NCBI GenBank assembly: GCA_041650615.1
Contig: JBAZKU010000001.1
Coordinates: 185,216 to 249,215, forward strand
Reading direction: 5' to 3'
Source of the DNA: Minisyncoccota bacterium
GTDB taxonomy: Bacteria; Patescibacteriota; Minisyncoccia; Phycocordibacterales; UBA9973
DNA length: 64,000 nt
Position 1 is the stretch's first letter; each line of letters starts with the position of its first letter. This document shows positions 3,344 through 62,650 of this stretch, one piece after another. The translations under genes and the position numbers were made by a program. The notes below the pieces were generated by a model. The model was not told the origin of the DNA, did not search any database, and worked only from the letters and a program-made list of their open reading frames with translations.

Positions 3344-3357
3344 AAAATTTTATTAAA

Positions 3358-3462
3358 ATAGCGGGATTCTTATTTCTGGGGTCGCTGTCTGGGCTTACTA
3401 GCCCAGCGCTCACTCTCGCGCCGTCGCGCTGCTAGAGTCCCCATAAACAAGAATCCCGCTAT
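3358..3462. repeat. 105-nt hairpin element: 14-bp AT-rich inverted flanks (atagcgggattctt/aagaatcccgctat) around a 75-nt GC-rich core
   Basis: Sits between the prfA start and rpmE stop. The core shares GGGTCGCTG and CTCGCG motifs with the GC core inserted in rplY (5715..5738). Confidence 0.7.
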
Positions 3463-3468
3463 TTTTAC

Positions 3469-6950: not shown

Positions 6951-8426
6951 TTATTTTAGCAATTTTTTCAGTGTTTCAATAACAATTTGCGGATTCGCGC
7001 TACCCTTGCTTTCTTTTATAACTTTTCCAACTAGAGACATTATAGCATTTTCTTTGCCAGCTTTATATACGGCAACAACTTCAGAGTTTTCTGAAATTAC
7101 TTTCTCCACGACAGCTTTAATTACACTTTCATCGTTTTTCTGCAATAAACCTTTTTCTGTAGCAATTTTGAGTGGAGACTCATTTTTTAATACAATTATC
7201 GCTAAAATATCTTTCGTTACTCGAGATGAAATTTTACCCTCGGCAGCAAGATTTATCAGTTCGGCAAAGTTTTCAGCATTCGGACGTTGGACGTCTGAAT
7301 TATTCTTTTTAAGACCTAAGTAATCAGAAGTAATGTAATTAGAAGCAAGTTTTACTTTCTCTTGTTCTTTTAAAATTTCAGATACTTCTTCAAACCATTG
7401 ACCCAATTCTTTATCATTAATGTAACTTTCTATATCCTCATCTTTAATTCCAAAATCTTTTTTATATCTCGCGCGTTTTTCTGCCGGTAGTTCCGGTAAT
7501 TCTTCTTTTATTTTTTTCAAATCAAAAGCTTCGTGTAAATACATTTTGGGTAAATCCGGTTCCGGGAAATACCTATAATCATGACTTGATTCTTTTTTTC
7601 TTTGAGAAAATGTTTTTTGCTTCCCATCGTCCCATCCCCTGGTTTCCTGCACTATTTCGTTTTCTTTTCCATCCTCCAAAAGTTTTACCATTCTATCCAA
7701 TTCAAATTTAATCGCTTTTTCAACACTCTTAAACGAATTTAAATTTTTCACTTCTACCTTCGTACCCAATTTATTTTTATCTTCCGAAACTGAAATGTTT
7801 GCTTCCACTCTCATCTCGCCTTTTTCCATATTCGCTTCGGACACTTCTAGATACCAAAGGATAAGCTGTAATTCTTTGGCAAAATCGGATGTGGTTTTAG
7901 CGGCGCTTTCTGCATCATCAAAACTATGAGGCTCAGTAACAAGTTCCATTAATGGCACACCTGCACGATTAAAATCAACAAGAGAATAACCATTTTCCCA
8001 CATGTCAGACATGTGAGTTTCCACATGTCTGACATGTGGGAAATCTATATGTTTATTATTAGCTGTGTCTTCTTCTAAATGAATACGAGTAATGTCAAAA
8101 TCAGCCAATTTTCCGCCGAAAACTATCGGATATTTATATTGTGAAATCTGAAAGCCTTTTGGGATGTCAGGGTAAAAATAATTTTTGCGATCAAATTCGG
8201 TAAAATCCGCAATTTTTCCACCAATAGCCAATCCAACTTTTATGACATTTTCTATCGCTTTTTTATTGATTACCGGCAAAGCCCCTGGGTGAGCCATACA
8301 AACAGGACAAATATTTACATTCGGTTTTTCTTCGTCTGGGTCATTCTTACAATCACAAAACATTTTCGTCTGCGTTTTCAACTCCGCATGTACTTCCAAA
8401 CCAATTGTTGGGTAATACTTACTCAT
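6951..8426 (-). CDS. gatB: Asp-tRNA(Asn)/Glu-tRNA(Gln) amidotransferase subunit B
   Basis: GLEVHAEL, FCDC..CPVC, GYSLVDFNRAGVPLMELV, and a C-terminal GatB/YqeY domain. Contains an in-frame perfect hairpin insert at 7998..8040. Confidence 0.9.
   Translation of the reverse strand: MSKYYPTIGLEVHAELKTQTKMFCDCKNDPDEEKPNVNICPVCMAHPGALPVINKKAIENVIKVGLAIGGKIADFTEFDRKNYFYPDIPKGFQISQYKYPIVFGGKLADFDITRIHLEEDTANNKHIDFPHVRHVETHMSDMWENGYSLVDFNRAGVPLMELVTEPHSFDDAESAAKTTSDFAKELQLILWYLEVSEANMEKGEMRVEANISVSEDKNKLGTKVEVKNLNSFKSVEKAIKFELDRMVKLLEDGKENEIVQETRGWDDGKQKTFSQRKKESSHDYRYFPEPDLPKMYLHEAFDLKKIKEELPELPAEKRARYKKDFGIKDEDIESYINDKELGQWFEEVSEILKEQEKVKLASNYITSDYLGLKKNNSDVQRPNAENFAELINLAAEGKISSRVTKDILAIIVLKNESPLKIATEKGLLQKNDESVIKAVVEKVISENSEVVAVYKAGKENAIMSLVGKVIKESKGSANPQIVIETLKKLLK
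7998..8040. repeat. 43-nt perfect hairpin (two 19-nt arms of cccacatgtcagacatgtg around a 5-nt loop) in frame inside gatB
   Basis: Arms are exact reverse complements, and each arm is also internally palindromic. Encodes about HVRHVETHMSDMWE, which is absent from typical GatB. Confidence 0.8.
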
Positions 8427-8434
8427 ATAACAAA

Positions 8435-9487
8435 TTATACCTTTTTCTTTAAAATTTTCACTAATTCATCTTTGAGAGTTTTTACCGATTTATCGTCATA
8501 TAAAGAAAGCGCAAAAACTTTTTTGGGCCTGCCTGCGCAGGCAGGAATCTTCTCAAATTCTTTTTTCTTTTTGTCTATGATTTTTTCATTTTCTACCATG
8601 TCAGATTTTGTAAGAATAATAATTTCATCTTTTTGGGATAGGCCTTCTTCTCCCAAATCTAAATTCTTGTCATATTTTTCCAATTCCTTTCTTACAACCT
8701 TATAATTTTTCATCATCATAGATAAATTTCCCGCCCCGTAGGAAGCTTGCTTTCCTTCGGGGTCAAACGATATCAGATGCGCAATCATTTTAGTTCGTTT
8801 TATATGTCGTAAAAATTTAACACCAAGTCCCTTTCCCGTATTTGCTCCTTCTATCAACCCTGGGATATCGGCAATCGTGTATCCGTAAAAATCGCCCAAA
8901 TTCGGGTCAAGCGTAGTAAATTCATAATCTCCTATTTTTGCCTCAGCGTTTGTTATGACATTGAGCAATGAAGATTTACCGGCATTGGGCAATCCAACTA
9001 ATCCAATATCCGCAAAAAGTTCCAACTCTATATGAAAATTTCCATGTTCTCCTTCCATTCCCGGCCGCCATTCTTTTGGAGTCGTATTGGTAGAACTTTT
9101 AAAATGTTCATTGCCAAACCCCCCATATCCGCCTTTCAAAAGCAAAACTTTTTGCCCTTCTTCCAGTAATTGCCATTGCTCATCCGTTTCCAGGTTAGTG
9201 ATAATGGATCCTATCGGCAATTCTAAAAAAAAGTCATTCCCTTTTTTGCCGTGTAAACTTTTTTTACCTCCATCTTCTCCTCGTCCGGCGCTAAAACTTT
9301 TTTTGGCTTTGTATTTTGAAAGTATATGCACATCGCGGACAGCTTGCGCATAAAAATCTCCGCCACGTCCACCGTCGCCTCCTGCCGGTCCGCCTTTGGG
9401 CACAAATTTTTCTTGTCGCCAGCGAACTACTCCGTCGCCACCGCGACCCGCTTCTGCGTATATTTTTATTTCATCTATGAAGGCCAT
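8435..9487 (-). CDS. obg: GTPase Obg/CgtA
   Basis: Obg fold N-terminus (GGDGGRGG) and G-domain (GLPNAGKSSL, DIPGLIEGA). Carries two in-frame palindromic inserts at 8528..8545 and 8734..8762. Confidence 0.9.
   Translation of the reverse strand: MAFIDEIKIYAEAGRGGDGVVRWRQEKFVPKGGPAGGDGGRGGDFYAQAVRDVHILSKYKAKKSFSAGRGEDGGKKSLHGKKGNDFFLELPIGSIITNLETDEQWQLLEEGQKVLLLKGGYGGFGNEHFKSSTNTTPKEWRPGMEGEHGNFHIELELFADIGLVGLPNAGKSSLLNVITNAEAKIGDYEFTTLDPNLGDFYGYTIADIPGLIEGANTGKGLGVKFLRHIKRTKMIAHLISFDPEGKQASYGAGNLSMMMKNYKVVRKELEKYDKNLDLGEEGLSQKDEIIILTKSDMVENEKIIDKKKKEFEKIPACAGRPKKVFALSLYDDKSVKTLKDELVKILKKKV
8528..8545. repeat. 18-nt perfect GC palindrome cctgcctgcgcaggcagg in frame in obg
   Basis: Self-complementary. 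Encodes PACAGR near the Obg C-terminus. Confidence 0.7.
8734..8762. repeat. 29-nt imperfect palindrome ccccgtaggaagcttgctttccttcgggg (copy 1) in frame in obg
   Basis: Second copy at 60127..60156. Encodes PEGKQASYG. Confidence 0.75.
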
Positions 9488-9586
9488 GTAAAATTAAGAA
9501 AATAAAAATTTTAAGAGTCGTGGGTTCCCTGTCCTCATGGACTCCGAGGGCGAAGGCTCAAAAATTTTTGATTTTCTTAATTTTAC
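9488..9586. repeat. palindromic element spanning exactly from the stop codon of the upstream gene to the obg start codon: 25-bp AT-rich inverted flanks around a GC core (gtgggttccctgtcct..gactccgagggcgaag)
   Basis: Inverted flanks gtaaaattaagaaaat(a)aaaaatttt and the reverse complement. Core is homologous to the cores at 54223..54273 and 31336..31366. Confidence 0.75.
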
Positions 9587-10479
9587 ACCGAAAGTGCTAA
9601 TTCTGCTAATTTAATAGCTCCTTCTTTGGTTTTTGCCACAGCCATAAAAAGCCCTCTGTGGCAAAATACTGCATCAGAAACACCCGTGATTTTTTGCAAC
9701 TCTTCATCTCGCAACCCCGCCCAAGATTCCGGTAAATTCTTTCTATTTTTAAAAGTTTTCGGGTCCTCTCTAACCGCTTTTATCCCCCAAGTATTAGTGG
9801 TTCTCGGATAAATTATAAAAAAGGGCTCAGGAAAATTATTTAGCATATTCTCGTAAGGATAATCTTCGTCTAAAATAATGATTCTTTTATCTTTCGTATT
9901 TTGGTAAATTGATATTACTTTTTCTTCCGCCAAAATAGAATCTTTAGCTTGGATAATCTCTCTCGACAAAATTTCCTTGGCGAAATTTACACATTTTAAA
10001 AACATTTCATCTTTACTTAAGTCAGTTTCGCGCCAAGTCGGACGCATGGCTAAAAAAAAGTGTTGGATAAAATAAGGAGAAATATTATATTTATTTTCCA
10101 CTAAATCAAAACCGTTATCAAAAGCATCCACAGGAGCAACAAGCCGTGTATCTATTAACTTTGCCGCTTTTTTTGATCCAGTTAATTCTTCACCGAACTT
10201 CTTCCAAACTAAGCCAAAAGATGAATATAGGATTCCGATTTCCCCTTTCTCTTTGAAACCTATTTGATGATGGTCAAATCTATTTGTTTTTTCATCATAA
10301 ATTCCGCCCACATCAAAAACATAATCGCCATTCTTTATTATTTCTTCATCGCGCGTGCGGATTATTTCAAGACTTTCACCTTTTTTTTCTAACATTAAAG
10401 AAAGCGCAGCTGCGGCAAAAATATCATCTGCGTGGAAAGAACCATTATGTGTAATTAATTTTTTACTGTTTGTTTCCAT
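9583..10479 (-). CDS. MYG1/UPF0160 family metal-dependent hydrolase
   Basis: THNGSFHADD N-terminal motif; about 300-aa family with an HD-like fold. Confidence 0.7.
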   Translation of the reverse strand: METNSKKLITHNGSFHADDIFAAAALSLMLEKKGESLEIIRTRDEEIIKNGDYVFDVGGIYDEKTNRFDHHQIGFKEKGEIGILYSSFGLVWKKFGEELTGSKKAAKLIDTRLVAPVDAFDNGFDLVENKYNISPYFIQHFFLAMRPTWRETDLSKDEMFLKCVNFAKEILSREIIQAKDSILAEEKVISIYQNTKDKRIIILDEDYPYENMLNNFPEPFFIIYPRTTNTWGIKAVREDPKTFKNRKNLPESWAGLRDEELQKITGVSDAVFCHRGLFMAVAKTKEGAIKLAELALSV

Positions 10480-11095
10480 TATTATTGTTATCTATAAAAC
10501 CATTTTTAAAATATTCAAAAATTCTATAAGAAAAAGCAACCAATTTATCAAAAAGTAAAAAGATCACAAGAAAAGCAAATATAGCCATAGAAAACTTGCC
10601 TATCTCTTTACTGAAAGAAAGAGCGGTTTGGCTGAAGAAATATCCTAAACACAAAAGCAGAGGCGCCCAGATAATGGTAGAAAATAATTCCGCTTTTAAA
10701 AAAGTTCTTAAATTAATTTTAAGATACCCAGAAAATACGATAACCCAATAATTTACCGACATTATAAATTTTGAAATAAAAATAGACCAAAATGGCTTTT
10801 GCTTGAACCTGGGCACAAAATAAAGTACTCTTTTTTCAAGATATTTCAAAAAATTACATTGATTATATTTTTTATAAAGAAATACTCCTAGATAATACCC
10901 AAAGAAAGTTTTTACCGCTCCTCCGGCTAAAATAAAAGAAAATGATAACCAAAAATCGAGAATTCCTAAGTGAGACAAGACACCCGCAGTAATAACAATT
11001 ATTTCTCCTTCAAAAATAAGTCCTATAAAAATTATCAAATACGCCAATACTTGATGCTCTCCCACTAACTGATTTAGAACTTGTACCGTGTGCAT
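10463..11095 (-). CDS. DedA/SNARE-associated family membrane protein
   Basis: Polytopic protein with a FEGEIIVITAGVL DedA-type motif. Confidence 0.6.
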   Translation of the reverse strand: MHTVQVLNQLVGEHQVLAYLIIFIGLIFEGEIIVITAGVLSHLGILDFWLSFSFILAGGAVKTFFGYYLGVFLYKKYNQCNFLKYLEKRVLYFVPRFKQKPFWSIFISKFIMSVNYWVIVFSGYLKINLRTFLKAELFSTIIWAPLLLCLGYFFSQTALSFSKEIGKFSMAIFAFLVIFLLFDKLVAFSYRIFEYFKNGFIDNNNNGNKQ

Positions 11096-11590: not shown

Positions 11591-12316
11591 ATGATTGTAG
11601 AAAAAAAGATCATATTTTTTGATACGGAAACTACGGGCAATACGGAAAAAGATTTTTTGTGCCAAATTGCTTATAAAACGGGCAATGAAAATTTCGTTAG
11701 CCTTTATAAACCTTCAATCAAAGTCCCTCCGGAAACTTCAGCTATACACCATATAACAAATAAAATGTTGGAGGACAAACCTGTTTTCAAAGAAAGCGGT
11801 GATTTTTCAAAAATCAAAGAACTTTTTGAAGATAAAAATTCTGTTATCGTCGCACATAATGCACTTTTTGATTTAATGATTATAAAAAAAGAAGGCATTA
11901 TTCCTGTTAATTTTATTTGCACCCTAAGATTGGCCAGATATTTGGACCCTGAGGAAAAAATAGAAAAATATAATTTGCAATACTTACGATATCTTTTGGA
12001 TATTGAAATAGATGCTACCGCCCATGATGCCCTGGGAGACGTTTTAGTTTTAGAAAAATTATATGAAAGGTTAAAGAAAAAACTGATTGAGCAAGAAAAA
12101 ATAAGTGAAGAAGAAGCGGTGCAAAAAATGATAGAGATTTCTTCCCATCCTTCAATTTTTAAATCCATTAAATTCGGTAAATATAACGGCCGGCAAATAG
12201 AAGAAATAATGAGAGTTGACCGTGGATATCTAGAATGGCTCTTGGCTCAAAAATTGGAAAGCGATCAAATAGATGAGGATTGGATTTATACATTAAAACA
12301 TTACTTAAATAAATAA
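11591..12316 (+). CDS. DEDDh 3'-5' exonuclease (DnaQ-like) with extra C-terminal domain
   Basis: Exo motifs FFDTETTG, VAHNALFDL and HDALGDV. C-terminal FGKYNGRQIEEI..YLEWLL motif. Confidence 0.8.
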   Translation: MIVEKKIIFFDTETTGNTEKDFLCQIAYKTGNENFVSLYKPSIKVPPETSAIHHITNKMLEDKPVFKESGDFSKIKELFEDKNSVIVAHNALFDLMIIKKEGIIPVNFICTLRLARYLDPEEKIEKYNLQYLRYLLDIEIDATAHDALGDVLVLEKLYERLKKKLIEQEKISEEEAVQKMIEISSHPSIFKSIKFGKYNGRQIEEIMRVDRGYLEWLLAQKLESDQIDEDWIYTLKHYLNK

Positions 12317-12317
12317 T

Positions 12318-13367
12318 ATGGAAGCAACTTTAATTTTATTAATTGTAATTATAGTTTTAGTTGGAGGTATTGTTGCCTATTTTTTACTGAGTAAGAAAGA
12401 AAGAAAACCCGAAAATGATACCGGACTTCAGCTTATTCTCCAGCAGTTAAATGAATTATCCAGAACCGTGGATAGTAAGCTTGGAGAATCTCACAAACAA
12501 GTACGGGAAAGCTTGCAATTTCATTCTTCTGAATCAAATAAAATAATAAGAGATGTGACGGAAAGACTTACCAGATTGGATGAGACTAATAAACAAGTTA
12601 TTTCCTTTGCCGACCAATTGCAAAGTTTGGAAAATATTTTAAAAAATCCTAAACAGCGCGGAATATTAGGCGAATACTATCTGGAAACAGTTTTGAAAAA
12701 TGTCCTTCCGCCTGGAAGCTATCAAATGCAATATGAATTTCCAGACAAGACAATTGTGGACGCCGTAGTGTTTGTGAAAGATAAAATTATCCCGATTGAT
12801 TCCAAATTTTCACTGGAAAATTACAATAAAATGGCAGAAGAAAACAACGAGGCGGAAAAGAAAAAATTGGAAACGATTTTTGTAAATGATTTAAAAAACA
12901 GAATTGTGGAAACAGCAAAATATATCCAGCCTTCCAAAGGCACCACTGATTTTGCTTTTATGTTCATTCCGCATGAAGCTATTTATTACGACCTTCTGAC
13001 CAATAAAGTCGGGGTGCTGGAAGAAAATGAAAATCTGATTCAACGCGCTGCCGGAAAATATAAAGTTATCATTACGAGTCCCACTTCTTTTCTTGCCTAT
13101 TTGCAAACTGTTCTTCAAGGATTGAAGGCTTTAAAAATAGAAGAGTCAGCCAAAGAAATAATAAAAAAAGTGGAAGACCTGGGGAAACATTTAAAATCTT
13201 TTGATGAATATTATTTGAAACTTGGTAATGCATTAAGAACTGTTGTAAGTCATTATGATACTTCAGGTAAAGAATTAAAAAAGATAGACAAGGATGTGCT
13301 TCGTATAGCCGGTACTTCGCCGGAACTTTCTACTCTTTCTCTGGAAAAACCAAAACTAGAAGATTAA
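12318..13367 (+). CDS. rmuC: DNA recombination protein RmuC
   Basis: N-terminal TM, coiled coil, and C-terminal RmuC nuclease-like domain (TDFAFMFIPHEAIYY, SPTSFLAYLQTV). Starts 1 nt after the exonuclease gene. Confidence 0.85.
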   Translation: MEATLILLIVIIVLVGGIVAYFLLSKKERKPENDTGLQLILQQLNELSRTVDSKLGESHKQVRESLQFHSSESNKIIRDVTERLTRLDETNKQVISFADQLQSLENILKNPKQRGILGEYYLETVLKNVLPPGSYQMQYEFPDKTIVDAVVFVKDKIIPIDSKFSLENYNKMAEENNEAEKKKLETIFVNDLKNRIVETAKYIQPSKGTTDFAFMFIPHEAIYYDLLTNKVGVLEENENLIQRAAGKYKVIITSPTSFLAYLQTVLQGLKALKIEESAKEIIKKVEDLGKHLKSFDEYYLKLGNALRTVVSHYDTSGKELKKIDKDVLRIAGTSPELSTLSLEKPKLED

Positions 13368-13376
13368 AAGAGTTTA

Positions 13377-13415
13377 CCCCCACACTTACTTTAGTGAGTA
13401 AGTTGTGGGGGTTTT
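13377..13415 (+). terminator. intrinsic terminator after rmuC
   Basis: cccccacacttact-ttag-tgagtaagttgtggggg followed by TTTT. Confidence 0.8.
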
Positions 13416-13426
13416 CCACAGTTTAG

Positions 13427-13454
13427 TTGACAAACATACATAATGGTATATAAT
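13427..13454 (+). promoter_or_regulatory. sigma70-type promoter TTGACA-N16-TATAAT
   Basis: Exact consensus hexamers; drives the two small basic ORFs. Confidence 0.7.
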
Positions 13455-13509
13455 ATTGACGAATTCACTATTCTTTGTTATTGTATCTTTTTCATAAAAG
13501 GAGTTCTTT

Positions 13510-13644
13510 ATGAATGTAAATGGAAAAAGTTATAAATCAAATCTTGAACGTTCTCGTGAAAACAAACAACGACTACGAAAGAAAAATAAGCCTAATAAAT
13601 CATTACATCGGCTTGCTAATAGAAATAAAGTTAATAATTCATAA
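13510..13644 (+). CDS. small highly basic protein (44 aa), possible nucleic-acid-binding or ribosomal-like
   Basis: SD AAAGGAG 7 nt upstream of the ATG. Sequence MNVNGKSYKSNLERSRENKQRLRKKNKPNKSLHRLANRNKVNNS. Below the 60-aa cutoff of the ORF track. Confidence 0.5.
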   Translation: MNVNGKSYKSNLERSRENKQRLRKKNKPNKSLHRLANRNKVNNS

Positions 13645-13722
13645 ACATCTTCTTCTTGATAAATACATATATTTTAAAATCAACTAATTCACTTTTTTAC
13701 CATTAATTATACGAGGTCCACT

Positions 13723-13842
13723 ATGTGTATCCCTGTTAATCTCCGAAATAAAAAACGAAAAATGGAACAACACAGAAAAGAAAGACGAACGCAGAAATTG
13801 GCAGAAAAAGCAGCGAAAAATGGAAAAAGGAAGAGAATCTAG
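13723..13842 (+). CDS. small highly basic protein (39 aa)
   Basis: SD GAGG upstream. Sequence MCIPVNLRNKKRKMEQHRKERRTQKLAEKAAKNGKRKRI. Followed by a terminator at 13876..13909. Confidence 0.45.
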   Translation: MCIPVNLRNKKRKMEQHRKERRTQKLAEKAAKNGKRKRI

Positions 13843-13875
13843 GAACGTTTTAAAAATCAATTTTATTTTAAAGAA

Positions 13876-13909
13876 AAACGCATTCCATAAAATCGGTGAT
13901 GCGTTTTTT
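13876..13909 (+). terminator. intrinsic terminator
   Basis: aacgcat..atgcgtt stem followed by TTTTT. Confidence 0.65.
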
Positions 13910-13943
13910 CATTTTTTATCCAAAAATGTTATATTTTCCACAT

Positions 13944-14017
13944 GGCCCTATCGTCTAACGGCTAGGACGTATCCTTCTCAAGGATAAAATCAGAGTCCGA
14001 TTCTCTGTAGGGTCACA
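13944..14017 (+). tRNA. tRNA-Glu (anticodon CTC)
   Basis: GGCCCTATCGTCTAACGGCTAGGACGTATCCTTCTCAAGGATA..TAGGGTCACA with anticodon loop TTCTCAA. Confidence 0.85.
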
Positions 14018-14227
14018 AAACGCGCAAAGCAAATAAACTGCTTTATTTGCGGGCGATTTGTGAAGGCACAGGCATAATTTTTGAGTACAAAAATTGCCGA
14101 GCCGGGGTCGCGAACACTTACGTATTTTATGATGGTGAGCTTGCCGAATCAGAAATAAAATACTTAGTGATTTGTGACCACATAAACTTAGAATGCGAAG
14201 CATATCAATTTTTGTTATAATTTAAAC

Positions 14228-14800
14228 ATGAAAAACGCCATACTTTTACATGGAAGTTCTTCTACCCCAAATTCTTTTTGGCTACCTTCTATTAAAAAAT
14301 TTTTAGAAGAAAAGGGTTATAGCGTTTGGGCTCCTCAACTTCCATTTCCGGAAGCACCTGATTTAAAAAATCAACTACCTTTTATTTTAAACAATGCAAC
14401 TTTTAATAACGAAACTATAATCATTGGCCACTCTTCTGGTTGCCCATTAATTTTGAGTATTTTAGAAAAGATAAATGTAAAAATTAATAAAGCAATTTTA
14501 GTTGCAGGTTTTGCAAGACTGCTTAGAAAAATGGAAGATAATTCTTTAAAAAAATTAGAGAAAGATGCAGAACCAATATTGCAGAAAACTTATGATTGGG
14601 AAAAAATTAAAAACAATGTTCAAGATATTGTTTTTATAAATTCAGAAAACGATCCATGGGGATGTAATGACAATGAAGGGAAATACATGCAGGAACACTT
14701 GGGAGGAAAACTTATAATAAACAAAGAAGGTCATATGGGGTCAGAAAAATTCAATCAACCATACAAGAATTTTCCACTTCTCGAACAATTATTGTCTTAA
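14228..14800 (+). CDS. RBBP9/YdeN-like serine hydrolase (alpha/beta fold)
   Basis: About 190 aa, with LLHGSSSTP and GHSSGC nucleophile-elbow motifs. Confidence 0.7.
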   Translation: MKNAILLHGSSSTPNSFWLPSIKKFLEEKGYSVWAPQLPFPEAPDLKNQLPFILNNATFNNETIIIGHSSGCPLILSILEKINVKINKAILVAGFARLLRKMEDNSLKKLEKDAEPILQKTYDWEKIKNNVQDIVFINSENDPWGCNDNEGKYMQEHLGGKLIINKEGHMGSEKFNQPYKNFPLLEQLLS

Positions 14801-22177: not shown

Positions 22178-22645
22178 TTAAGACACATCTATAATTTTAT
22201 AATTAACTTCTCCATTCGGAGTTTTAAATGAAATACTGTCTCCTTTTTTTCTTCCGAAAAGCGCTTCACCGAACGGAGACCTATTAGAAATTTTCCCTAG
22301 CGCCATATCGGCTTCTTCGGAGCCTACAATTTGATATTTTCTTTCTTTTTTCTCTCCTTCTTTTAAAACAACAACCTTAGATCCTATTTCTATTTCCTCG
22401 CCTCCACCTCCGGACACAACTTGAGAAGATCGCAAGATTTGTTCTATTTTGTGAATACGTCCTTCAAGTTTTCCTTGTTCTTCGCGAGTTTGATGATATT
22501 CCGCATTTTCGGACAAATCTCCCAAGGATTTTGCATACTCCAAATTTTCCAAAATTTCTTTTCTTTTGGGGCCTTTCAATTCTTTTAATTCTTTTTCCAA
22601 AGCTTTCTTTTTTTCTTCCGTTATATAATCGCCTGCCTGTTTCAT
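22178..22645 (-). CDS. greA: transcription elongation factor GreA
   Basis: Coiled-coil N-domain and FKBP-like C-domain (LGDLSENAEY). Confidence 0.9.
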   Translation of the reverse strand: MKQAGDYITEEKKKALEKELKELKGPKRKEILENLEYAKSLGDLSENAEYHQTREEQGKLEGRIHKIEQILRSSQVVSGGGGEEIEIGSKVVVLKEGEKKERKYQIVGSEEADMALGKISNRSPFGEALFGRKKGDSISFKTPNGEVNYKIIDVS

Positions 22646-22681: not shown

Positions 22682-22789
22682 CTGAAAATTATAAAATAAA
22701 TCTTTCTCACGGCTCGCACTCGAACCTGACAATGGTTCACGAATCTAATATTGCGTATGCCGAAGAAAGACTTACTTTATAATTTTCAG
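22682..22789. repeat. third copy (reverse orientation) of the conserved 55-nt core found twice in leuS, flanked by a different ~25-bp inverted repeat (ctgaaaattataaaataaatctttc / gaaagacttactttataattttcag)
   Basis: Core cacggctcgcactcgaacctgacaatggttcacgaatctaatattgcgtatgccgaa is about 90% identical to the reverse complement of 50508..50562. Confidence 0.8.
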
Positions 22790-22832: not shown

Positions 22833-23060
22833 ATGGCAAAAACAGTAATTGAAGTAAATAAAAACGGAAATGAAAACAACGCAAGCATATTGCGCCGTTT
22901 TTCCCGCAGAATACAGGAATCAAATATTATTCAAAAAGTGAAAGGTTCTCGTTTTAACAAAAGAAAGGAATCAAAGCTTAAGGTAAAGAAAGGAACTCTT
23001 AAACACTTGGAAAGAAGGAGAGAAATAGAAAAACTCCGCAAGCTTGGCAAGGTAAAATAA
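22833..23060 (+). CDS. rpsU: 30S ribosomal protein S21-like
   Basis: 75 aa, basic. ILRRFSRRIQE..RFNKRKESKLKVKK resembles S21 (ALRRFKR..EKPTTERKRAK). Confidence 0.55.
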   Translation: MAKTVIEVNKNGNENNASILRRFSRRIQESNIIQKVKGSRFNKRKESKLKVKKGTLKHLERRREIEKLRKLGKVK

Positions 23061-29542: not shown

Positions 29543-29692
29543 ATGAGTGAAGAAAAATGCCCTGTTTGTGGGAATAACCCTTGCACTTGTCCACCAGCTC
29601 CAGAAACCCCTGTTCAACCAACTCCAGAAACCCCTACCCAACCAACTCCAGAAACCCCTACCCAACCAACTCCAGAAACCCCTATTCAATAG
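29543..29692 (+). CDS. small Cys-rich peptide (49 aa) with four tandem PTPETP(T/V/I)Q repeats
   Basis: Sequence MSEEKCPVCGNNPCTCPPAPETPVQ(PTPETPTQ)x2PTPETPIQ. The DNA carries 4x24-nt tandem repeats at 29594..29689. A clean terminator follows. All three frames are open because of the repeat; this frame has the ATG and the CxxC..CxC motif. Confidence 0.45.
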   Translation: MSEEKCPVCGNNPCTCPPAPETPVQPTPETPTQPTPETPTQPTPETPIQ

Positions 29693-29704
29693 AAAGAAAA
29701 ATAA

Positions 29705-29731
29705 AACAGCCCCTTCAACGGGGCTGTTTTA
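29705..29731 (+). terminator. intrinsic terminator
   Basis: cagcccc-ttcaa-cggggctg followed by TTTT. Confidence 0.8.
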
Positions 29732-30696: not shown

Positions 30697-31842
30697 ATGA
30701 AAATCTTAAGCATTGAAACATCCTGCGATGACACAGGAATAACTTTGATGGAGGCAAAAGGAAGAGTAAATAATGCTTCTTTTAAAATCTTGGATAATGT
30801 CTCAAATTCGCAAATAAAAATCCATGCGGAATATGGCGGAGTATATCCGATGCTTGCAAAACGAGAACATATAAAAAATTTACCGATACTTTTAGAACAA
30901 GTACTTAAAAAGACTAAGCTTGATAAAAAGAAAAAGCCAGTGGATTTAATAGCTGTAACTTATGGACCGGGATTAGAACCAGCACTTTGGACAGGAATAG
31001 TTTTCGCCAAAGAACTGGCAAAAAAGTGGAATATACCGCTTATACCAGTGAATCATATGGAAGGACATATCCTATCGGCATTTGGAAAACACAAAGGAAA
31101 CTTTAAAATCCCCAAAATGGATTTTCCGGTACTATCTCTCCTTGTTTCCGGCGGACACACGGAACTTGTGCTCATAAAAAAATGGATGCAATATAAAATT
31201 ATCGGCGAAACATTGGATGATGCAGCCGGAGAAGCTTTTGATAAGGTAGCTAGGATGATGGGTTTCCCCTATCCCGGCGGACCAAAAATTTCAGAGTTGG
31301 CAGAAAAAGGGAGGGAGAAAATAGTTTTTAAAGGGACTCCGCAGGGCGACGGCCCGAGGACCGAGCAAATTTTTCAGCAGAGAAATTGCGACCCTTTAAA
31401 AATTGATTTTCTTCCTCCCTTTCTCCCCCGCCCGATGATTTACAGTAAAAATTTTGATTTTTCTTTTTCGGGACTGAAAACCGCCGTGCTTTATTTAATT
31501 AAAAAAATCGAGAAATTGAACGAGGAAACCAAAGAAAAAATCGCTTTGGAATTTGAAAATGCAGTAGTAGAAACTCTTGTCTATAAAACAATAAAGGCAA
31601 AAGAAAAATACAAGGTAAAAACTATCATTGTGGCCGGCGGGGTTTCTTGCAATAAGCACTTGCAAAAACAAATGAAAAAAACTATTGGCAAAGATATTGA
31701 ACTTTTTTTCCCGGAAAAAGAACTAACGGGAGATAATTCAATAATGGTAGGCATAGCCGGATATTTGAATTATCAAAAAAATAAAAATAAAATTCTTAAA
31801 ATAGACGTTATAAAGGCAAAAGGTAATTTACGCTTTAAATAG
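30697..31842 (+). CDS. tsaD: tRNA N6-adenosine threonylcarbamoyltransferase TsaD, with a ~31-aa in-frame insertion
   Basis: MKILSIETSCDDT.. and HMEGH metal motif. The insertion KGTPQGDGPRTEQIFQQRNCDPLKIDFLPPF lies before the conserved LPRPM..DFSFSGLKT. Confidence 0.85.
   Translation: MKILSIETSCDDTGITLMEAKGRVNNASFKILDNVSNSQIKIHAEYGGVYPMLAKREHIKNLPILLEQVLKKTKLDKKKKPVDLIAVTYGPGLEPALWTGIVFAKELAKKWNIPLIPVNHMEGHILSAFGKHKGNFKIPKMDFPVLSLLVSGGHTELVLIKKWMQYKIIGETLDDAAGEAFDKVARMMGFPYPGGPKISELAEKGREKIVFKGTPQGDGPRTEQIFQQRNCDPLKIDFLPPFLPRPMIYSKNFDFSFSGLKTAVLYLIKKIEKLNEETKEKIALEFENAVVETLVYKTIKAKEKYKVKTIIVAGGVSCNKHLQKQMKKTIGKDIELFFPEKELTGDNSIMVGIAGYLNYQKNKNKILKIDVIKAKGNLRFK
31326..31422. repeat. GC-rich insertion in tsaD, related to the gactccgagggcg core family, with flanking ttttaaaggg/ccctttaaaa inverted repeat
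   Basis: ggactccgcagggcgacggcccgagg resembles the cores at 9513..9559 and 54223..54273. Followed by a pyrimidine tract. Confidence 0.5.
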
Positions 31843-50030: not shown

Positions 50031-52619
50031 CTAACTTAGTATGTTAATAACCCTATTTTTTACATAAATGACTCTTTTTATATCTTTATTCAGATGTTTT
50101 AAAACATTTTCATCTGTAAGAGCTTTTTTCTTCACTTCATCTTCTATCTCATCCATTTGGATCAAAATTTCAGATCTGACTCTACCATTTACTTGCACGG
50201 CAATTTTTATTTCCTGGTCTTTTACTAAATCCTCATCCCATTTTGGCCAAGCTGAAAGATGAATACTTTTTTTCTCTCCTAAATCATACCAAATATTTTC
50301 AGTAATGTGTGGAGCAAATGGAGCTAAAATTTGCAAGAATTTTTTGTAATCTTCCGCGTCTATATTTTCCACTTTTTCCATTTCTGTCGCGAGTATCATC
50401 ATGGCGGAAATCGCAGTATTAAAACGCATATTTTCTATATCTTCCGAAACTTTTTTAATTGTTTTGTGTAGTAGCTTTTTCAAAGATTGCGAAGCAGAAC
50501 TTTTTTCGGCATACGCAATATTAGGTTCGTGAACCACATTCAGGTTCGAGTGCGAGCCGTGAAAAAGTTGCTGCTTCGCAATCTTTTCTGCTATTCTCCA
50601 AACTTTTTCTATAAATCTTCTAGAACCAATAATACTTTCCGTGCTCCAGGCAACTGCTTCCTCAAACGGTCCCATAAACATTTCATAGACACGCAAAGTG
50701 TCTGCGCCGTAAGTTTTAACAATATCGTCTGGATTTACGACATTACCTAAAGATTTTGACATTTTTACCCCTCCTTCGCCCAAAATCATCCCATGAGAAG
50801 TTCTTTTCTGATAAGGTTCTACTGTTGGCACAAGTTTTAAATCATATAAAAACTTATGCCAAAAACGTGAATACAATAAATGAAGAGTGGTGTGTTCCAT
50901 TCCCCCGTTATACCAATCAATCGGCGTCCAATATTTTAATTTTTTCTTATCTGCAAAGATTTTATTATTTTTAGGGTCCGTATATCTTAAATAATACCAA
51001 GAGCTTCCAGCCCAGTTCGGCATCGTGTCTGTTTCCCTTTTTGCTTTGCCGCCGCATTTCGGACATTTTGTATTTACCCATTTTGAAATGGAGGCAAGCG
51101 GAGATTCGCCCGTATCTGTCGGTTTATAACTTTTTACTTCTGGTAATTTTATCGGCAAGTCCTTATCCGGCACCGGTACCAGTCCGCATTTTTCGCAATT
51201 AACCAACGGTATCGGTTCACCCCAGTATCTCTGTCTTGAAAAGACCCAATCTCTTAATTTGAATTTTGTGACAATTTTCCCACCGACAAATTCCGTGATT
51301 TTTTTTCGGGCTTCTTCAGAACCCATGTAATCAAATTGTTTAGAAGAATGTATTAAAATACCTTCCCCATCATAAAAATCTTTTGGTTCTCCTTCCAATA
51401 AATCTGCATCAGTAATAACCTGTCTTATCGGCAAATTGTATTTCTTAGCAAAAGCAAAATCTCTTTCATCATGAGCAGGAACTGCCATAATGGCGCCTGT
51501 GCCATAATCCGGCAATACATAGTCAGCAATAAAAACAGGCACTTCTTCATCATTTGCCGGATTTATTGCTTTAATGCCTTTTAACTCCACCCCCGTTTTT
51601 TCTTTTTCATCAGCCGTTCTTTCAATTTCAGATTTTTTCTTTGCCTTTTTTATATATTCTTCAACTTCTTTTTTATTTTTAACTTGCCCTAAAAATTTTG
51701 TCACCAACGGATGTTCAGGAGCAAGTACGACATAAGTCGCTCCAAAAAGCGTATCCGCGCGCGTGGTGAATACTTTTATTTTAAAAGATTGCGAAGCAGT
51801 GCTTTTTTCGGCATACGCAATATTAGGTTCGTTAACCATATTCAGGTTCGAGTGCGAGCCGTGAAAAAGCATCTGCTTCGCAATCTTTATCTTAAAAACA
51901 ATCTCGCTTCCTTCCGACTTTCCTATCCAGTTTCTTTGCTGAATTTTTACCCGCTCCGGATAGTCAACCAAATCCAAATCTTTATCCAATCTATCCGCGT
52001 ATTTTGTAATTGCCAGCATCCATTGTTCTTTTTCTCTCTTTTCCGTCTTACTTCCGCAACGTTCGCAAATTCCGCCTGACGCCTCCTCGTTCGCCAAGCC
52101 GATTTTACAGGAAGGGCACCAATTTATATAAGATTTCGCTTTATATGCCAAACCTTTTTTGAAAAATTGCAAAAATATCCATTGCGTCCATTTATAATAT
52201 TTAGGGTCGGTAGTATTTATTTCCCGGGTCCAATCAAAAGAAATGCCAAGCATTTTTATTTGCCTACGGAAATTGTCCGTATTTTTTTTAGTTACAATTG
52301 CCGGATGAATACCTGTTTTAATAGCATAATTTTCTGTTGGTAAACCAAAGGCATCCCAACCGATAGGATAAAGTACATTTAAACCTTCCATTCTTTTTTT
52401 TCTAGAAATAACATCCATTCCGATATATGGCCTCGGATGTCCTACGTGCAGTCCATCGCCGGATGGATAAGGAAATTCAATTAGGGCGTAAAATTTACGC
52501 CCTAATCGCCCCGTAGCGAGTTTTGCTCCACTACCGGGGCTCGTGGTATTGTAAATTCCGCTCTTCTCCCATTCTTTTTGAACCCTTAATTCGATTTTTT
52601 TATGATCATATTCCTTCAT
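50031..52619 (-). CDS. leuS: leucine--tRNA ligase carrying two 35-aa in-frame copies of a repeat element plus an N-terminal insert
   Basis: HVGH (PYPSGDGLHVGHP) and KMSKS motifs. Start trimmed to MKEYDHKK. Two near-identical segments ..LFHGSHSNLN(V/M)V(H/N)EPNIAYAEKS.. disrupt conserved blocks. Confidence 0.9.
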   Translation of the reverse strand: MKEYDHKKIELRVQKEWEKSGIYNTTSPGSGAKLATGRLGRKFYALIEFPYPSGDGLHVGHPRPYIGMDVISRKKRMEGLNVLYPIGWDAFGLPTENYAIKTGIHPAIVTKKNTDNFRRQIKMLGISFDWTREINTTDPKYYKWTQWIFLQFFKKGLAYKAKSYINWCPSCKIGLANEEASGGICERCGSKTEKREKEQWMLAITKYADRLDKDLDLVDYPERVKIQQRNWIGKSEGSEIVFKIKIAKQMLFHGSHSNLNMVNEPNIAYAEKSTASQSFKIKVFTTRADTLFGATYVVLAPEHPLVTKFLGQVKNKKEVEEYIKKAKKKSEIERTADEKEKTGVELKGIKAINPANDEEVPVFIADYVLPDYGTGAIMAVPAHDERDFAFAKKYNLPIRQVITDADLLEGEPKDFYDGEGILIHSSKQFDYMGSEEARKKITEFVGGKIVTKFKLRDWVFSRQRYWGEPIPLVNCEKCGLVPVPDKDLPIKLPEVKSYKPTDTGESPLASISKWVNTKCPKCGGKAKRETDTMPNWAGSSWYYLRYTDPKNNKIFADKKKLKYWTPIDWYNGGMEHTTLHLLYSRFWHKFLYDLKLVPTVEPYQKRTSHGMILGEGGVKMSKSLGNVVNPDDIVKTYGADTLRVYEMFMGPFEEAVAWSTESIIGSRRFIEKVWRIAEKIAKQQLFHGSHSNLNVVHEPNIAYAEKSSASQSLKKLLHKTIKKVSEDIENMRFNTAISAMMILATEMEKVENIDAEDYKKFLQILAPFAPHITENIWYDLGEKKSIHLSAWPKWDEDLVKDQEIKIAVQVNGRVRSEILIQMDEIEDEVKKKALTDENVLKHLNKDIKRVIYVKNRVINILS
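50482..50586. mobile_element. 105-nt palindromic element in leuS, copy 1: 25-bp inverted flanks aaagattgcgaagcag.. around a 55-nt conserved core
   Basis: 16-bp perfect IR aaagattgcgaagcag/ctgcttcgcaatcttt. Length is a multiple of 3 and is translated. Confidence 0.85.
51784..51888. mobile_element. 105-nt palindromic element in leuS, copy 2 (same orientation, about 1.3 kb from copy 1)
   Basis: About 93% identical to 50482..50586, with the same IR flanks. Confidence 0.85.
52490..52545. repeat. GC-rich imperfect palindrome (ccccggtag..ctacgggg) encoding an extra SPGSGAKLATGRLGRK segment near the LeuS N-terminus
   Basis: A GC island in frame. The segment is absent from canonical LeuS N-termini. 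Confidence 0.45.
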
Positions 52620-52639
52620 AAAATCACTTAACAATATTT

Positions 52640-53685: not shown

Positions 53686-54651
53686 TTAGCACCAAATAGC
53701 CGTATTTGAAAGCGGAATAATGCGATTGTTTGATTTTTCAAGCAAGCATAATTCACCGGCTGAAACTTCCCCTTTCAAGCCAGTCATAATATTTTCCAGC
53801 GCATAACCTAAAGAGAATGAAGACAAATCTGTCGCATAAGAATTTAAAATAATAAAAAGCGGTTTGTCGCTTAAAATTTTTCGCACCCCTTCTAGAAGCT
53901 TCGGCAAATCTTTTTCTATGTCCCAAGTTTCCCCTTTTGGTCCGCGGCCGAATTTCGGCGGGTCCATTATCACAGCATCATACTTGTTTCCCCTTTTTTC
54001 TTCACGTTCAATAAATTTTAAAACATCTTCACAGATAATTCGCATTGGCATATCTCCCAATCCAGAAATTTTTTGATTTTCTTTTGCCCATTCGGTGGAA
54101 GATTTTGAAGCGTCTATGTGTGTGACTTCCGCGCCGGCACGAAGAGCAAAAAGACTGGCCACCCCGGTGTAACCGAATAAATTTAAGAATTTAATTCTAG
54201 GCGAGCTTGAGGAAGAATTTTTTAGAAACGTGTGGGTCCCCTGTCCTTTTGACTCCGAGGGCGCAGTTTCAGAAAAATTCTTCCTCAAGCTCGCCATTCC
54301 GATTTTTTCTTCTATAAAATCCCAATGAACTGCCTGTTCGGGGAAAAAACCTAAATGTCTGAAAGGTGTAGGTGAAGCCAAAAATTTGATACCTTTATAC
54401 GACATTCCCCATTTATCTCCAATTTTTTTGTTCATTTTCCAGCCACTCTTAGCGCCAGTCTTAGAACTCCAAAACTTTCCGTCTGCTTTTCCCCACTCTT
54501 TGCTTCCCAGAGTTTTATTCCAAACAGCCTCCTCATAAGGACGTATAAAAGTATATGGACCAAACTTTTCTAATTTCTCTCCCTCTCCTGTATCCAGAAG
54601 CTTATAATCAACCCAATCTTTTGCACAAAAAATTTTAATTTCTTTTTTCAT
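53686..54651 (-). CDS. class I SAM-dependent RNA methyltransferase (RlmI/YccW-like) with a 32-aa in-frame insertion
   Basis: SAM-binding LNLFGYTGVASLFALRAGA..VTHIDAS, with a PUA-like N-terminus. The insertion ASLRKNFSETAPSESKGQGTHTFLKNSSSSSP is encoded by the palindromic element at 54200..54295. Confidence 0.65.
   Translation of the reverse strand: MKKEIKIFCAKDWVDYKLLDTGEGEKLEKFGPYTFIRPYEEAVWNKTLGSKEWGKADGKFWSSKTGAKSGWKMNKKIGDKWGMSYKGIKFLASPTPFRHLGFFPEQAVHWDFIEEKIGMASLRKNFSETAPSESKGQGTHTFLKNSSSSSPRIKFLNLFGYTGVASLFALRAGAEVTHIDASKSSTEWAKENQKISGLGDMPMRIICEDVLKFIEREEKRGNKYDAVIMDPPKFGRGPKGETWDIEKDLPKLLEGVRKILSDKPLFIILNSYATDLSSFSLGYALENIMTGLKGEVSAGELCLLEKSNNRIIPLSNTAIWC
54200..54295. mobile_element. 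96-nt palindromic element in the methyltransferase gene: 23-bp perfect inverted flanks ggcgagcttgaggaagaattttt around a GC core gtgggtcccctgtcct..gactccgagggcgcag
   Basis: Flanks are exact reverse complements. The core is about 85% identical to the core at 9513..9559. 96 nt = 32 codons. Confidence 0.8.
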
Positions 54652-61437: not shown

Positions 61438-62529
61438 TTAAATAGTTCCTCCTGTTTTTATAACATGCTCGACCAATGTATAGGCATACCCCATTTCATT
61501 ATCATACCAACCCAATACTTTTACCAAATTGCCATCAACTACGCGGGTCATTTCCAAGTCGGCAATGGATGCATGCGATTCCCCTAAAATATCAGAAGAA
61601 ACCAATGGTTCCTTGGTAACAGCAAATACTTTTTCCCAACGCTTGTCTTTTGACGCTTTTTCTAAAATCGCATTAACTTCTTCTTTGGTGGTATTTTTCT
61701 TTGAAATAAAAGTGACATCTACAATTGACCCAGCTACTACCGGCACGCGAACAGAAATACCATCAAATAATCCTTTTAATTCCGGAAAAGCCTCCGTCAC
61801 AGCGATAGCTGCACCGGTTGAACTTGGAACTATGTTTTGCGCAGCCGCGCGTCCCTCGCGCAAATCCTTTTTACTTGGCCCGTCCACAAGCGCTTGAGAA
61901 GCTGTATATCCATGAACTGTATTTAAAATCGCTTTTTCTATCCCCAAAGCTTCATGTAAAATTGCAATTAGAGGGCTTGCGGCATTGGTGGTACAAGATG
62001 CATTAGAAGTAATATCGCAAGTACCGAATTTATTTTCATTAATTCCCAACAATATTGTTTCTCCTTTTACACTTCCCTCATTTCCCCCGCCTAGACTCGC
62101 GCTAGTCGAGGCTGGTTTAGAAGGCGCAGAGATCACAACTTTTTTTGCACCTTGTTCAATATGAAATTTTGCCTTGTCATAAGAAGTAAACAGTCCGGTT
62201 GATTCAACCACCACATCAATATTCAAATCTTTCCAAGGAAGTTTCGTGGTGTCTTTTTCAGAAATGAATTTAATCTTTTTTCCGTCAATTATCAAATCAG
62301 CGCCGGAAACTTCTACGGAATGATTCCAATTTCGGTAAACAGTATCATGACGCAATAAGTAAGCTAAACTTTCTATGGAACCTAAATCATTTACTGCCAC
62401 TATCTCAAGCTCGGGTTTTTCCCAGGCTACTTTTAAAAATGCCCTGCCTATCCTGCCAAAACCATTAATAGATATTTTGATCTTTTTCATAATAATATTA
62501 TAGCACATAATATATGTCCAAAAAGGCAA
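61438..62529 (-). CDS. gap: glyceraldehyde-3-phosphate dehydrogenase with an ~18-aa in-frame insertion
   Basis: NGFGRIGR Rossmann motif and catalytic SNASCTTN. The insertion PASTSASLGGGNEGSVKG before the conserved block is encoded by the repeat at 62086..62130. Confidence 0.9.
   Translation of the reverse strand: MPFWTYIMCYNIIMKKIKISINGFGRIGRAFLKVAWEKPELEIVAVNDLGSIESLAYLLRHDTVYRNWNHSVEVSGADLIIDGKKIKFISEKDTTKLPWKDLNIDVVVESTGLFTSYDKAKFHIEQGAKKVVISAPSKPASTSASLGGGNEGSVKGETILLGINENKFGTCDITSNASCTTNAASPLIAILHEALGIEKAILNTVHGYTASQALVDGPSKKDLREGRAAAQNIVPSSTGAAIAVTEAFPELKGLFDGISVRVPVVAGSIVDVTFISKKNTTKEEVNAILEKASKDKRWEKVFAVTKEPLVSSDILGESHASIADLEMTRVVDGNLVKVLGWYDNEMGYAYTLVEHVIKTGGTI
62086..62130. repeat. 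GC-rich repeat, family cccgcctWgact.., in frame in gap
   Basis: cccgcctagactcgcgctagtcgaggctggt matches 312..342 (in the atpB tail) at 28 of 31 positions. Confidence 0.8.
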
Positions 62530-62538
62530 AGAATCAAA

Positions 62539-62615
62539 TTTTTGCCGGTACGGATTTTTTGAAGCTTAAAAAATCCTGAAATTGGCTCGCCGTCGCTCGC
62601 CAAACCCCTTAAAAA
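62539..62615. repeat. ~77-nt intergenic element, copy 2 (hairpin plus GGCTCGCC direct repeats), between gap and dnaE
   Basis: About 97% identical to 1697..1772. Followed on the minus strand by TGTGCTATAAT 6 nt before the gap ATG. Confidence 0.8.
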
Positions 62616-62650
62616 TTTATTCTTTGCCTTTTTATGTTAATATAGTAAAA

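Follow-up and report, generated by a model that had tools for sequence, protein, structure and literature searches.

To our knowledge, palindromic repeats that stand in frame within genes have essentially been a curiosity of Rickettsia for 25 years, with no known mechanism by which they spread. Rickettsia palindromic elements (RPEs) invade coding as well as non-coding regions, and copies inside genes keep the frame, their conserved peptide being one that the fold of the host protein can accommodate (PMC10969869; PMC1166351). In R. felis, 728 RPEs have been counted, 85 of them within open reading frames (ORFs) (PMC1166351). Here we describe a hairpin element of about 105 nt, family 1, that occurs three times in a 64,000-nt stretch of the genome of a Minisyncoccota bacterium (GenBank assembly GCA_041650615.1, contig JBAZKU010000001.1, positions 185,216 to 249,215; hereafter the window), twice inside the leucyl-tRNA synthetase gene leuS (copies A and B) and once between genes (copy C). 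These copies probably represent a small, non-autonomous family of hairpin repeats that colonises Nomurabacteria- and Paceibacteria-type genomes of the Candidate Phyla Radiation (CPR) and is a functional analogue of RPEs. Full-text literature searches returned no description of such elements in CPR or Patescibacteria.

Copies A (50482..50586) and B (51784..51888) both lie on the plus strand, the orientation carrying CGGCATACGCAATATTAG, and score 133 and 134 bits, respectively, against a covariance model of the family. Each is 105 nt long and contains a 63-nt segment made up of the core and a conserved inner stem (TTCGGC...GTGAAAAAG in copy A; 50505..50567 in A and 51807..51869 in B, both plus strand), in which 61 of 63 positions are equal between the two copies, as are 23 of the 25 positions of the 5' arm. 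The host ORF runs on the minus strand (50031..52634) and encodes an 867-aa LeuS. Copy C (22682..22789, minus strand, 116 bits) is intergenic and has AT-rich arms homologous to those of A and B; its core and inner stem (22702..22764, minus strand) match A and B at 58 of 63 positions each, and its 55-nt core at 51 of 55 (93%). An initial annotation of this DNA had proposed two 105-nt copies in leuS, each adding 35 aa in frame, and a third, reversed copy near 22.7 kb with a core about 90% identical, and in all these respects it was borne out. Core words occur three times in the window against zero expected by chance from shuffled sequence, and the covariance model (R1) recovered exactly A, B and C from the 64 kb, at 116-134 bits, with no further family-1 copy. 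Each of the three copies is predicted to form a long hairpin (-49 to -50 kcal/mol; z-scores between -8 and -9). The inverted repeat around copy C, initially taken to be perfect, is 90% complementary and pairs in full only on the minus strand, through G-U pairs. An assembly artefact was excluded as the source of the family because it occurs on more than 80 independent contigs.

The inverted repeats flanking the core had been described as completely different between the leuS copies and copy C; on closer comparison, they are homologous. In a MAFFT alignment, the flanks of copy C fall in register with those of A and B, and a repeat search stretches the similarity between A/B and C to 85 nt at 84% identity. 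Over the 25 nt of the 5' arm that precede CGGC, 15 positions are identical and the differences comprise nine transitions and one transversion; in the outer 18 nt, the purine/pyrimidine pattern matches at 17 positions, a level reached by ~2e-4 of the 18-mers in the window. Each arm change between A/B and C is matched on the opposite arm, and copies such as L003 bridge the leuS and copy C types in their arms. Judging from this alignment, the flanks of A, B and C are diverged, compensated versions of one stem, and to call them completely different is an overstatement, because they align and their changes are compensated. Over the family as a whole, an arm consensus emerges, AAAAAAATnnAAAGTAGTGC, which is the shared flank homology among further copies that the initial annotation had named as refuting its view.

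Covariation was assessed on 82 copies aligned without gaps (alignment A3). Standard pairs formed in 90% of hairpin cells compared with 80% after shuffling, 372 cells had changed on both sides compared with 108 (0 of 500 shuffles reached 372), and the covariation score was 0.306 compared with 0.127. Double changes affected 19 of the 29 outer pairs, and sliding the 3' partners by 1-3 columns lowered pairing to 40-50%. Columns 24-91 are at least 90% conserved, and the outer columns are the most variable, with up to five pair types at outer pairs. In the single-cell genome GCA_000380845.1 (L001), which is syntenic with the window and whose LeuS is 77% identical, the copy orthologous to A shows four pair changes, all of them compensated in full, as well as one G-T pair. 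A hybrid copy (L019) combines a 5' arm of the window type with a 3' arm of the L001 type; its arms are unpaired and its hairpin reaches only -25 kcal/mol. The outer arms have a GC fraction of 0.33 in coding and 0.18 in intergenic copies, and arm identity is 0.785 for pairs of copies at the same site against 0.63 for pairs at different sites. Mismatches of the G-T and A-C types occur at 23:4 in coding copies and at 4:4 in intergenic copies; we rejected this excess as evidence of the folding strand, since it is seen in coding copies only and is inseparable from coding constraints.

The family was collected by scanning genomes with an exact word from the left half of the core and metagenomes with one from the right half (19-20 nt), followed by a fuzzy search of the collected loci, which together gave 83 distinct copies with a modal hairpin length of 105-107 nt (82 copies). 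Most copies came from groundwater samples, among them Ga0265296, Ga0172379 and the Hainich ERZ12926xx assemblies. Named source contigs were all metagenome-assembled genomes (MAGs) of Ca. Nomurabacteria, Paceibacterota or Patescibacteria, barring three chance matches to the search word on Tenacibaculum, Ignavibacteriota and Limisphaerales contigs. A truncated left half-copy in a Saccharibacteria MAG (L020) was considered as the end of an autonomous element and rejected, as it has neither a right half nor an adjacent transposase. Scans of IMG/VR with both core words found no family-1 copy, and thus no sign of a phage vector.

Long ORFs contain 45 of the 83 copies (54%), and all 45 share one orientation and one reading frame, encoding L[LF][FS]HGSHSNLNVVNE[ST]NIAYAE[KE]S, with two of the six frames of the element open. 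Their hosts are LeuS (sites A and B), Tgt, MnmA (two sites), MurI and an S-adenosylmethionine (SAM)-dependent methyltransferase. The other 38 copies are intergenic, and 20 of the 21 situated between same-strand genes are oriented to transcription in the same way as the coding copies. Copy C runs opposite to A and B, yet GC skew keeps its sign from 22 kb to 52 kb, so that in this single case replication direction alone is unlikely to set the orientation. The arms read AAAGATTGCGAAGCAG at three host sites, the two in LeuS and the one in the methyltransferase, and at all three, host Lys-Ile codons (AAR ATH) lie at the outer end of the arm or overlap it (window positions 50580-50590 and 51880-51895; loci L077 and L098); a preferred target, or microhomology where element and host meet, may be the reason. 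In the L001 methyltransferase gene (10001-10558), a stop codon (CAA to TAA) within the 3' arm of a family-1 copy splits the ORF, which is either a pseudogene or carries a single-cell sequencing error.

The two LeuS inserts, KIAKQQLFHGSHSNLNVVHEPNIAYAEKSSASQSL and KIAKQMLFHGSHSNLNMVNEPNIAYAEKSTASQSF, are 35 aa each, and tryptic peptides such as QQLFHGSHSNLNVVHEPNIAYAEK would be expected from translated inserts. Copy A corresponds to residues about 685-719, just before the anticodon-binding domain, and copy B to residues about 251-285, just before the CP1 editing domain; with Pfam placing Anticodon_1 from residue 720 and the editing domain from residue 282, each domain therefore begins directly after an insert. 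Against LeuS of Thermus thermophilus, the alignment breaks exactly at insert B, between aligned stretches, and insert A can be matched only by opening gaps opposite a linker that is shorter in that protein. No protein record matches the 867-aa LeuS exactly, and a peptide search with the two open frames joined, which was word-indexed and insensitive to short inserts in long proteins, returned a single protein (P0001). In an AlphaFold2 model of Tgt with a family-1 insert (predicted template modelling score 0.80), host helix 196-229 runs on through the peptide encoded by the 5' arm, and the core peptide (residues 230-250) is without secondary structure, at a predicted local distance difference test (pLDDT) score below 50. 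In this model, the insert looks like a tolerated surface loop rather than a folded module, and the frame statistics suggest that inserts are translated as a disordered loop.

LeuS site B is empty in L001, which reads IKFD-NIEIFTT against IVFKI[35 aa]KIKVFTT in the window, and the L001 DNA contains no palindrome there; moreover, several genomes have the arms AAAGATTGCGAAGCAG at both LeuS sites and in the methyltransferase gene. On these two observations, the arms travel together with the core. The same loops also accept other inserts. In other genomes, unrelated hairpin inserts occupy LeuS sites A and B, which hold three or more families, and two further LeuS loops hold small hairpins with a conserved loop and a covarying stem. 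The L001 LeuS (12016-14346) has two more small hairpin inserts, GFSVLRQAQGHSVCG and KGQTLNPQKGLA, in loops that are empty in the window, and is without about 70 aa of the CP1 editing domain present in the window LeuS. In Tgt, the loop between RWAERSL.EH.KL and ALFGIVQGG has a length of anywhere from 27 to 98 aa, although the orthologs compared (P0002-P0121) are 79-100% identical over the rest of the protein, and it includes three alleles of ancestral length (P0081 is one), several short footprints, nested inserts and at least eight insert families; P0038, for instance, equals P0006 minus 24 aa between SH...SH repeats. One Tgt allele (L118) has an unrelated core within arms, GAAAATCAGAAACAAGCTCA, that closely resemble the family-1 arms at this site. 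In another (L115), the 5' arm GAAAATCAGAAACAAG stands alone, with no 3' arm to pair with, and the first 8 nt of the L118 core are retained; deletion between CTCAGG direct repeats in an L118-type allele explains this sequence, which makes L115 a footprint.

Exchange is also visible within the core. The differences that set a second core subtype apart are confined to an apical block of about 28 nt, in which 11 nt are changed and the peptide pattern stays similar (NVVNESNIAYAE versus ETIKESTVAYAE). In the pairs L047/L052 (MurI) and L058/L087 (MnmA), the arms are 87-97% identical and the basal cores 100%, and the apical blocks only 55-62%, against 81-85% in the flanks. By this comparison, the apical block has been exchanged between copies that share arms (93% identity) and an identical basal core.

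The anatomy, distribution and turnover of family 1 suggest how it may be copied. The unit is a hairpin of ~105 nt, comprising an A-rich 5' arm, a T-rich 3' arm, the inner stem GCTTTYTT/ARAAAGC and an asymmetric core of ~55 nt, and would be copied whole, with the arms moving together with the core. Copies in genes survive only in the orientation and frame that read ...HGSHSNLNVVNESNIAYAE... free of stops, at inter-domain linkers or surface loops, selection probably retaining only in-frame, hydrophilic insertions at linkers; intergenic copies occupy the short spacers, and most of them face transcription in that orientation too. After insertion, arms would drift, mostly through GC-to-AT transitions, and their complementarity would be kept either by selection on the hairpin or by template switching within it (quasi-palindrome correction). 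Cores would decay or be refreshed block by block from intact copies, through ectopic conversion or re-insertion at the hairpin apex, and this would be why intact cores are alike across sites and genomes and arms are site-specific. Intact cores most likely stay constant because copying requires the core in cis.

Several points weigh against this reading. Mobility is deduced only from the distribution of copies, since neither a mobilising enzyme nor a target-site duplication nor a signature of terminal inverted repeats came to light, and translation of the inserts is deduced from frame statistics rather than observed. The copy set is redundant, orthologous copies not being independent of one another, and searching with exact words favours intact cores, inflating the figures for core conservation. 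The orientation bias of intergenic copies goes beyond what a reading frame would impose and hints at a strand-specific process or an effect at the RNA level. Finally, arms that are site-specific combined with cores that are independent of site could also arise if only the core were mobile.

The last point leads to the strongest alternative, which we nevertheless regard as unlikely: a segment of ~68 nt, core plus inner stem, would enter or replace the apex of existing hairpins, be they older elements or footprints, and the outer arms would belong to the site. Arms do carry a site signal and cores carry none (cores are 0.883 identical in pairs from the same site and 0.885 in pairs from different sites), the MurI and MnmA pairs share arms and basal core and differ in their apical blocks, and L118 places a foreign core in family-1-like arms. 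The crowding of at least eight insert families into one Tgt loop, and of three or more at LeuS A and B, points the same way, although hot spots are also explicable by a scarcity of protein loops that tolerate inserts. A second hairpin family in the window is also pertinent. Family 2, with the core GTGGGTYCCCTGTCCTTNTGACTCCGAGGGCG, lies in frame in a SAM methyltransferase ORF (54200-54295 in 53689-54651, minus strand) and in an intergenic region (9487-9587); at the methyltransferase position, seven other genomes hold family 1 instead, beside remnants of family-2 arms. Among the 16 family-2 copies in the collected loci, inner arms are conserved and outer arms are seemingly unrelated between copies yet self-complementary. 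Set against this, site B was empty without a palindrome, identical arms occur at three host sites, the family has an arm consensus with conservation that falls off gradually rather than sharply, and a conversion tract accounts better for the hybrid arms of L019 than insertion at the apex does. The proposal in the initial annotation that the core targets the centres of pre-existing palindromes does not hold for A and B, and finds some support across the family in the apical swaps, the foreign core in Tgt arms and the multi-family loop; it is not needed to explain A, B and C, is contradicted for B by the empty site, and is a live contributor in the family at large. We would give similarly modest odds to a core that acts as a mobile or exchangeable module, homing to hairpin apices or copied into them by an enzyme specific for hairpins and for one strand. 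Were the core indeed mobile, the loops of Tgt, LeuS, MnmA, TsaD and GatB would be landing pads for successive core families, and DNA would be moving without terminal repeats or target duplications, in a manner that could explain the spread of RPEs too.

Less probable still is that the core is a strand-specific RNA or DNA signal selected by the host, such as a protein-binding or processing site in translation-related genes, and held by purifying selection. Across genomes, orthologous copies have a third-codon-position identity of 0.87 in the core (first and second positions 0.86 and 0.92), 0.70 in the arms (0.77 and 0.83) and 0.57 in the host flanks (0.83 and 0.89), the core value being inflated because copies were gathered through exact core words. 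Core conservation at these sites has no codon periodicity, and the half of the core outside the search word is conserved as much as the half used for the search. Conservation ends sharply at the element boundary (flank identity 0.61 in the first 30 nt, 0.53-0.60 beyond), and with no gradient of identity into the flanks, recent transfer of alleles together with their flanks was ruled out. Concerted evolution within genomes was likewise rejected as the sole cause of core constancy, the difference between core identity within genomes (0.908, 10 pairs only) and between them (0.885) being too weak. A host signal would accord with third positions as conserved as first, with the strong orientation bias relative to transcription, with hosts that are mostly tRNA/rRNA enzymes, and with a core GC fraction of 0.44, in coding and intergenic copies alike, held in a genome of 0.36. 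It accords poorly with a sample free of the search bias, 120 Tgt orthologs collected by homology of the host protein and on average 87% identical outside the insert loop. A family-1 insert is present in 39 of the 120, always in the same loop, and its peptide grades continuously from 22/23 to 9/23 matches to the consensus, with cores decaying in many lineages and outpacing the host protein. This continuous decay argues against a host function in every copy and favours selfish birth, refreshment and decay. Presence is also patchy, the same site being empty or filled by unrelated families in close relatives, and Rfam offers no match beyond generic long hairpins. Going by these sequence patterns, family 1 behaves as selfish DNA with turnover rather than as a host signal.

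The initial annotation had also suggested that insertion builds the inverted flanks from target DNA. In that event, one arm would be host sequence and its partner an inverted copy that arose on integration. Two observations could be read in this way, namely the Tgt allele L115 with its single 5' arm, and the outermost AAAGATT of LeuS A and the methyltransferase copy, which overlaps E-K-I codons of the host that alleles with other families have as well. Yet L115 retains 8 nt of the L118 core and is a CTCAGG deletion footprint, nothing in the empty L001 allele corresponds to the site-B arms, one set of arms is shared by different sites, and flank duplication shows no excess; for family 1, the idea is largely refuted and we consider it very improbable. 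Just as improbable is that the insert is a peptide module selected for a function at the protein level, in that the constant frame of 45/45 coding copies and the similar peptide pattern kept by core subtype 2 across 11 changed nucleotides are outweighed by the lack of codon periodicity, the 38 intergenic copies, the predicted disorder (pLDDT <50) and the free decay in Tgt.

Beyond family 1, the window contains at least five hairpin families. A hairpin of ~130 nt (31302-31430, -63 kcal/mol) lies in frame in the tsaD ORF (30697-31842), with no second copy in the collected loci. One family has two intergenic copies (62510-62639 and 1679-1790) with cores 90% identical and differing arms, and ten copies in the collected loci. 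A GC-rich hairpin of 110 nt (3355-3465) lies downstream of a release-factor ORF (2378-3343), and a perfect 22-bp hairpin (7994-8043) is in frame in gatB (6954-8426). Families 2, 3 and 5 each have 5-16 copies in the collected loci and share a plan of constant centre, conserved inner stem and variable, self-complementary outer arms. Separately, a 24-nt tandem repeat, ACCAACTCCAGAAACCCCTACCCA, present in about four copies (29593-29712), gives an ORF a P/T/E-rich stretch close to its end.

As to known classes, Rfam returned only tRNAs in the window at gathering score and, at permissive thresholds, only sub-threshold matches resembling microRNA precursors, that is, generic long hairpins. Copy C has greA (22178-22645, minus strand) and a 75-aa ORF without a Pfam match (22833-23060, plus strand) as neighbours; no promoter or terminator consensus was found at this copy. 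An intrinsic terminator was rejected as an identity for the element, as copy C has no terminator-like site and A and B are internal to an essential ORF. The window has 55 ORFs, which are housekeeping genes and include no transposase, integrase, reverse transcriptase or HUH gene. Target-site duplications of at least 2 nt were no more frequent than expected from shuffled flanks (9 versus 9, 82 copies), and the sole excess was in 1-nt flank matches (34 versus 20 expected).

Classical MITEs (transposable elements of the miniature inverted-repeat kind), such as Correia/NEMIS, ERIC, BOX and RUP, are likewise small, non-autonomous, hairpin-forming and multi-copy, and at times lie within genes with an open frame (PMC10969869). 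They carry terminal inverted repeats that match a parent insertion sequence, together with target-site duplications, whereas in family 1 termini are variable and duplications are at chance; no transposase of a parent insertion sequence was found in the 55 ORFs of the window or beside L020, whole genomes not having been searched. Across 82 copies, the centre is conserved and the termini are least conserved, with complementary arms kept through double changes, which supports the initial view that this is not how classical MITEs behave. BOX elements and bacterial interspersed mosaic elements (BIMEs) are also mosaic.

Repetitive extragenic palindromes (REPs), their paired REPIN form with REP-associated tyrosine transposases (RAYTs), and IS200/IS605 elements offer recognition based on hairpins, an absence of target duplication and strand-specific insertion, and a process of this kind could yield the orientation bias. 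REPs are 20-40 nt long and extragenic with a conserved GTAG start, and REPINs conserve their ends and not their centre; family 1, by contrast, is 105 nt long, 54% intragenic, and conserved at the centre instead of the ends. No Y1/HUH gene is present in the window, no genome-wide search for Y1/HUH or RAYT genes having been made. Insertion of IS1397 and ISKpn1 into the loops of REP hairpins is a precedent for targeting the apex of a palindrome, as a mobile core would require, but these are full insertion sequences with a transposase, and here cores of only ~70 nt would move. Quasi-palindrome template-switch mutagenesis (the Ripley model, and work of the Lovett laboratory), an established route by which one arm of an imperfect palindrome comes to be copied onto the other, would keep diverging arms complementary; it is a mutational process and not a family of elements, and the covariation described above suggests that it may act here.

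The phenomenon long associated with Rickettsia thus appears in an unrelated, uncultivated phylum that is represented by hundreds of metagenomic genomes, giving the CPR a comparative power beyond that of Rickettsia through its empty sites and footprints, its hybrid arms, its exchanged core blocks and the loops that hold many families. Essential CPR enzymes carry fast-turnover, probably disordered inserts at domain linkers, which is relevant to annotation, to structure prediction and to explaining 'CPR-specific insertions', and the family provides a natural data set on the copying of hairpin DNA and the co-evolution of palindrome arms.

Of all described systems, RPEs come closest. RPE-1 to RPE-10 are palindromic elements of ~100-150 bp that form several families in a reduced genome, and the family-1 unit is a long hairpin of 105-108 nt. 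Family 1 resembles them in standing in frame within unrelated genes (one frame in 45/45), in encoding a conserved peptide, in having non-coding copies (38) and in sharing the window with several other hairpin families, and in both systems no mobilising enzyme has been identified. The likeness is one of description, and the phyla differ, CPR/Patescibacteria as opposed to Rickettsia; all hits lie on CPR contigs, so that family 1 would be an analogue of RPEs and not a member by descent. In family 1, the centre is the most conserved part, arms covary, apical blocks are exchanged and single loops hold many families in turn, and none of these four features was found described for RPEs (PMC10969869, PMC1166351). 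We rate as new, relative to RPEs, the phylum, the reversed gradient of conservation with the centre above the termini, the modular exchange of cores and the shared insertion loops. Family 1 is apparently an undescribed CPR analogue of the Rickettsia palindromic elements, in which conservation is highest in the core and not at the ends.

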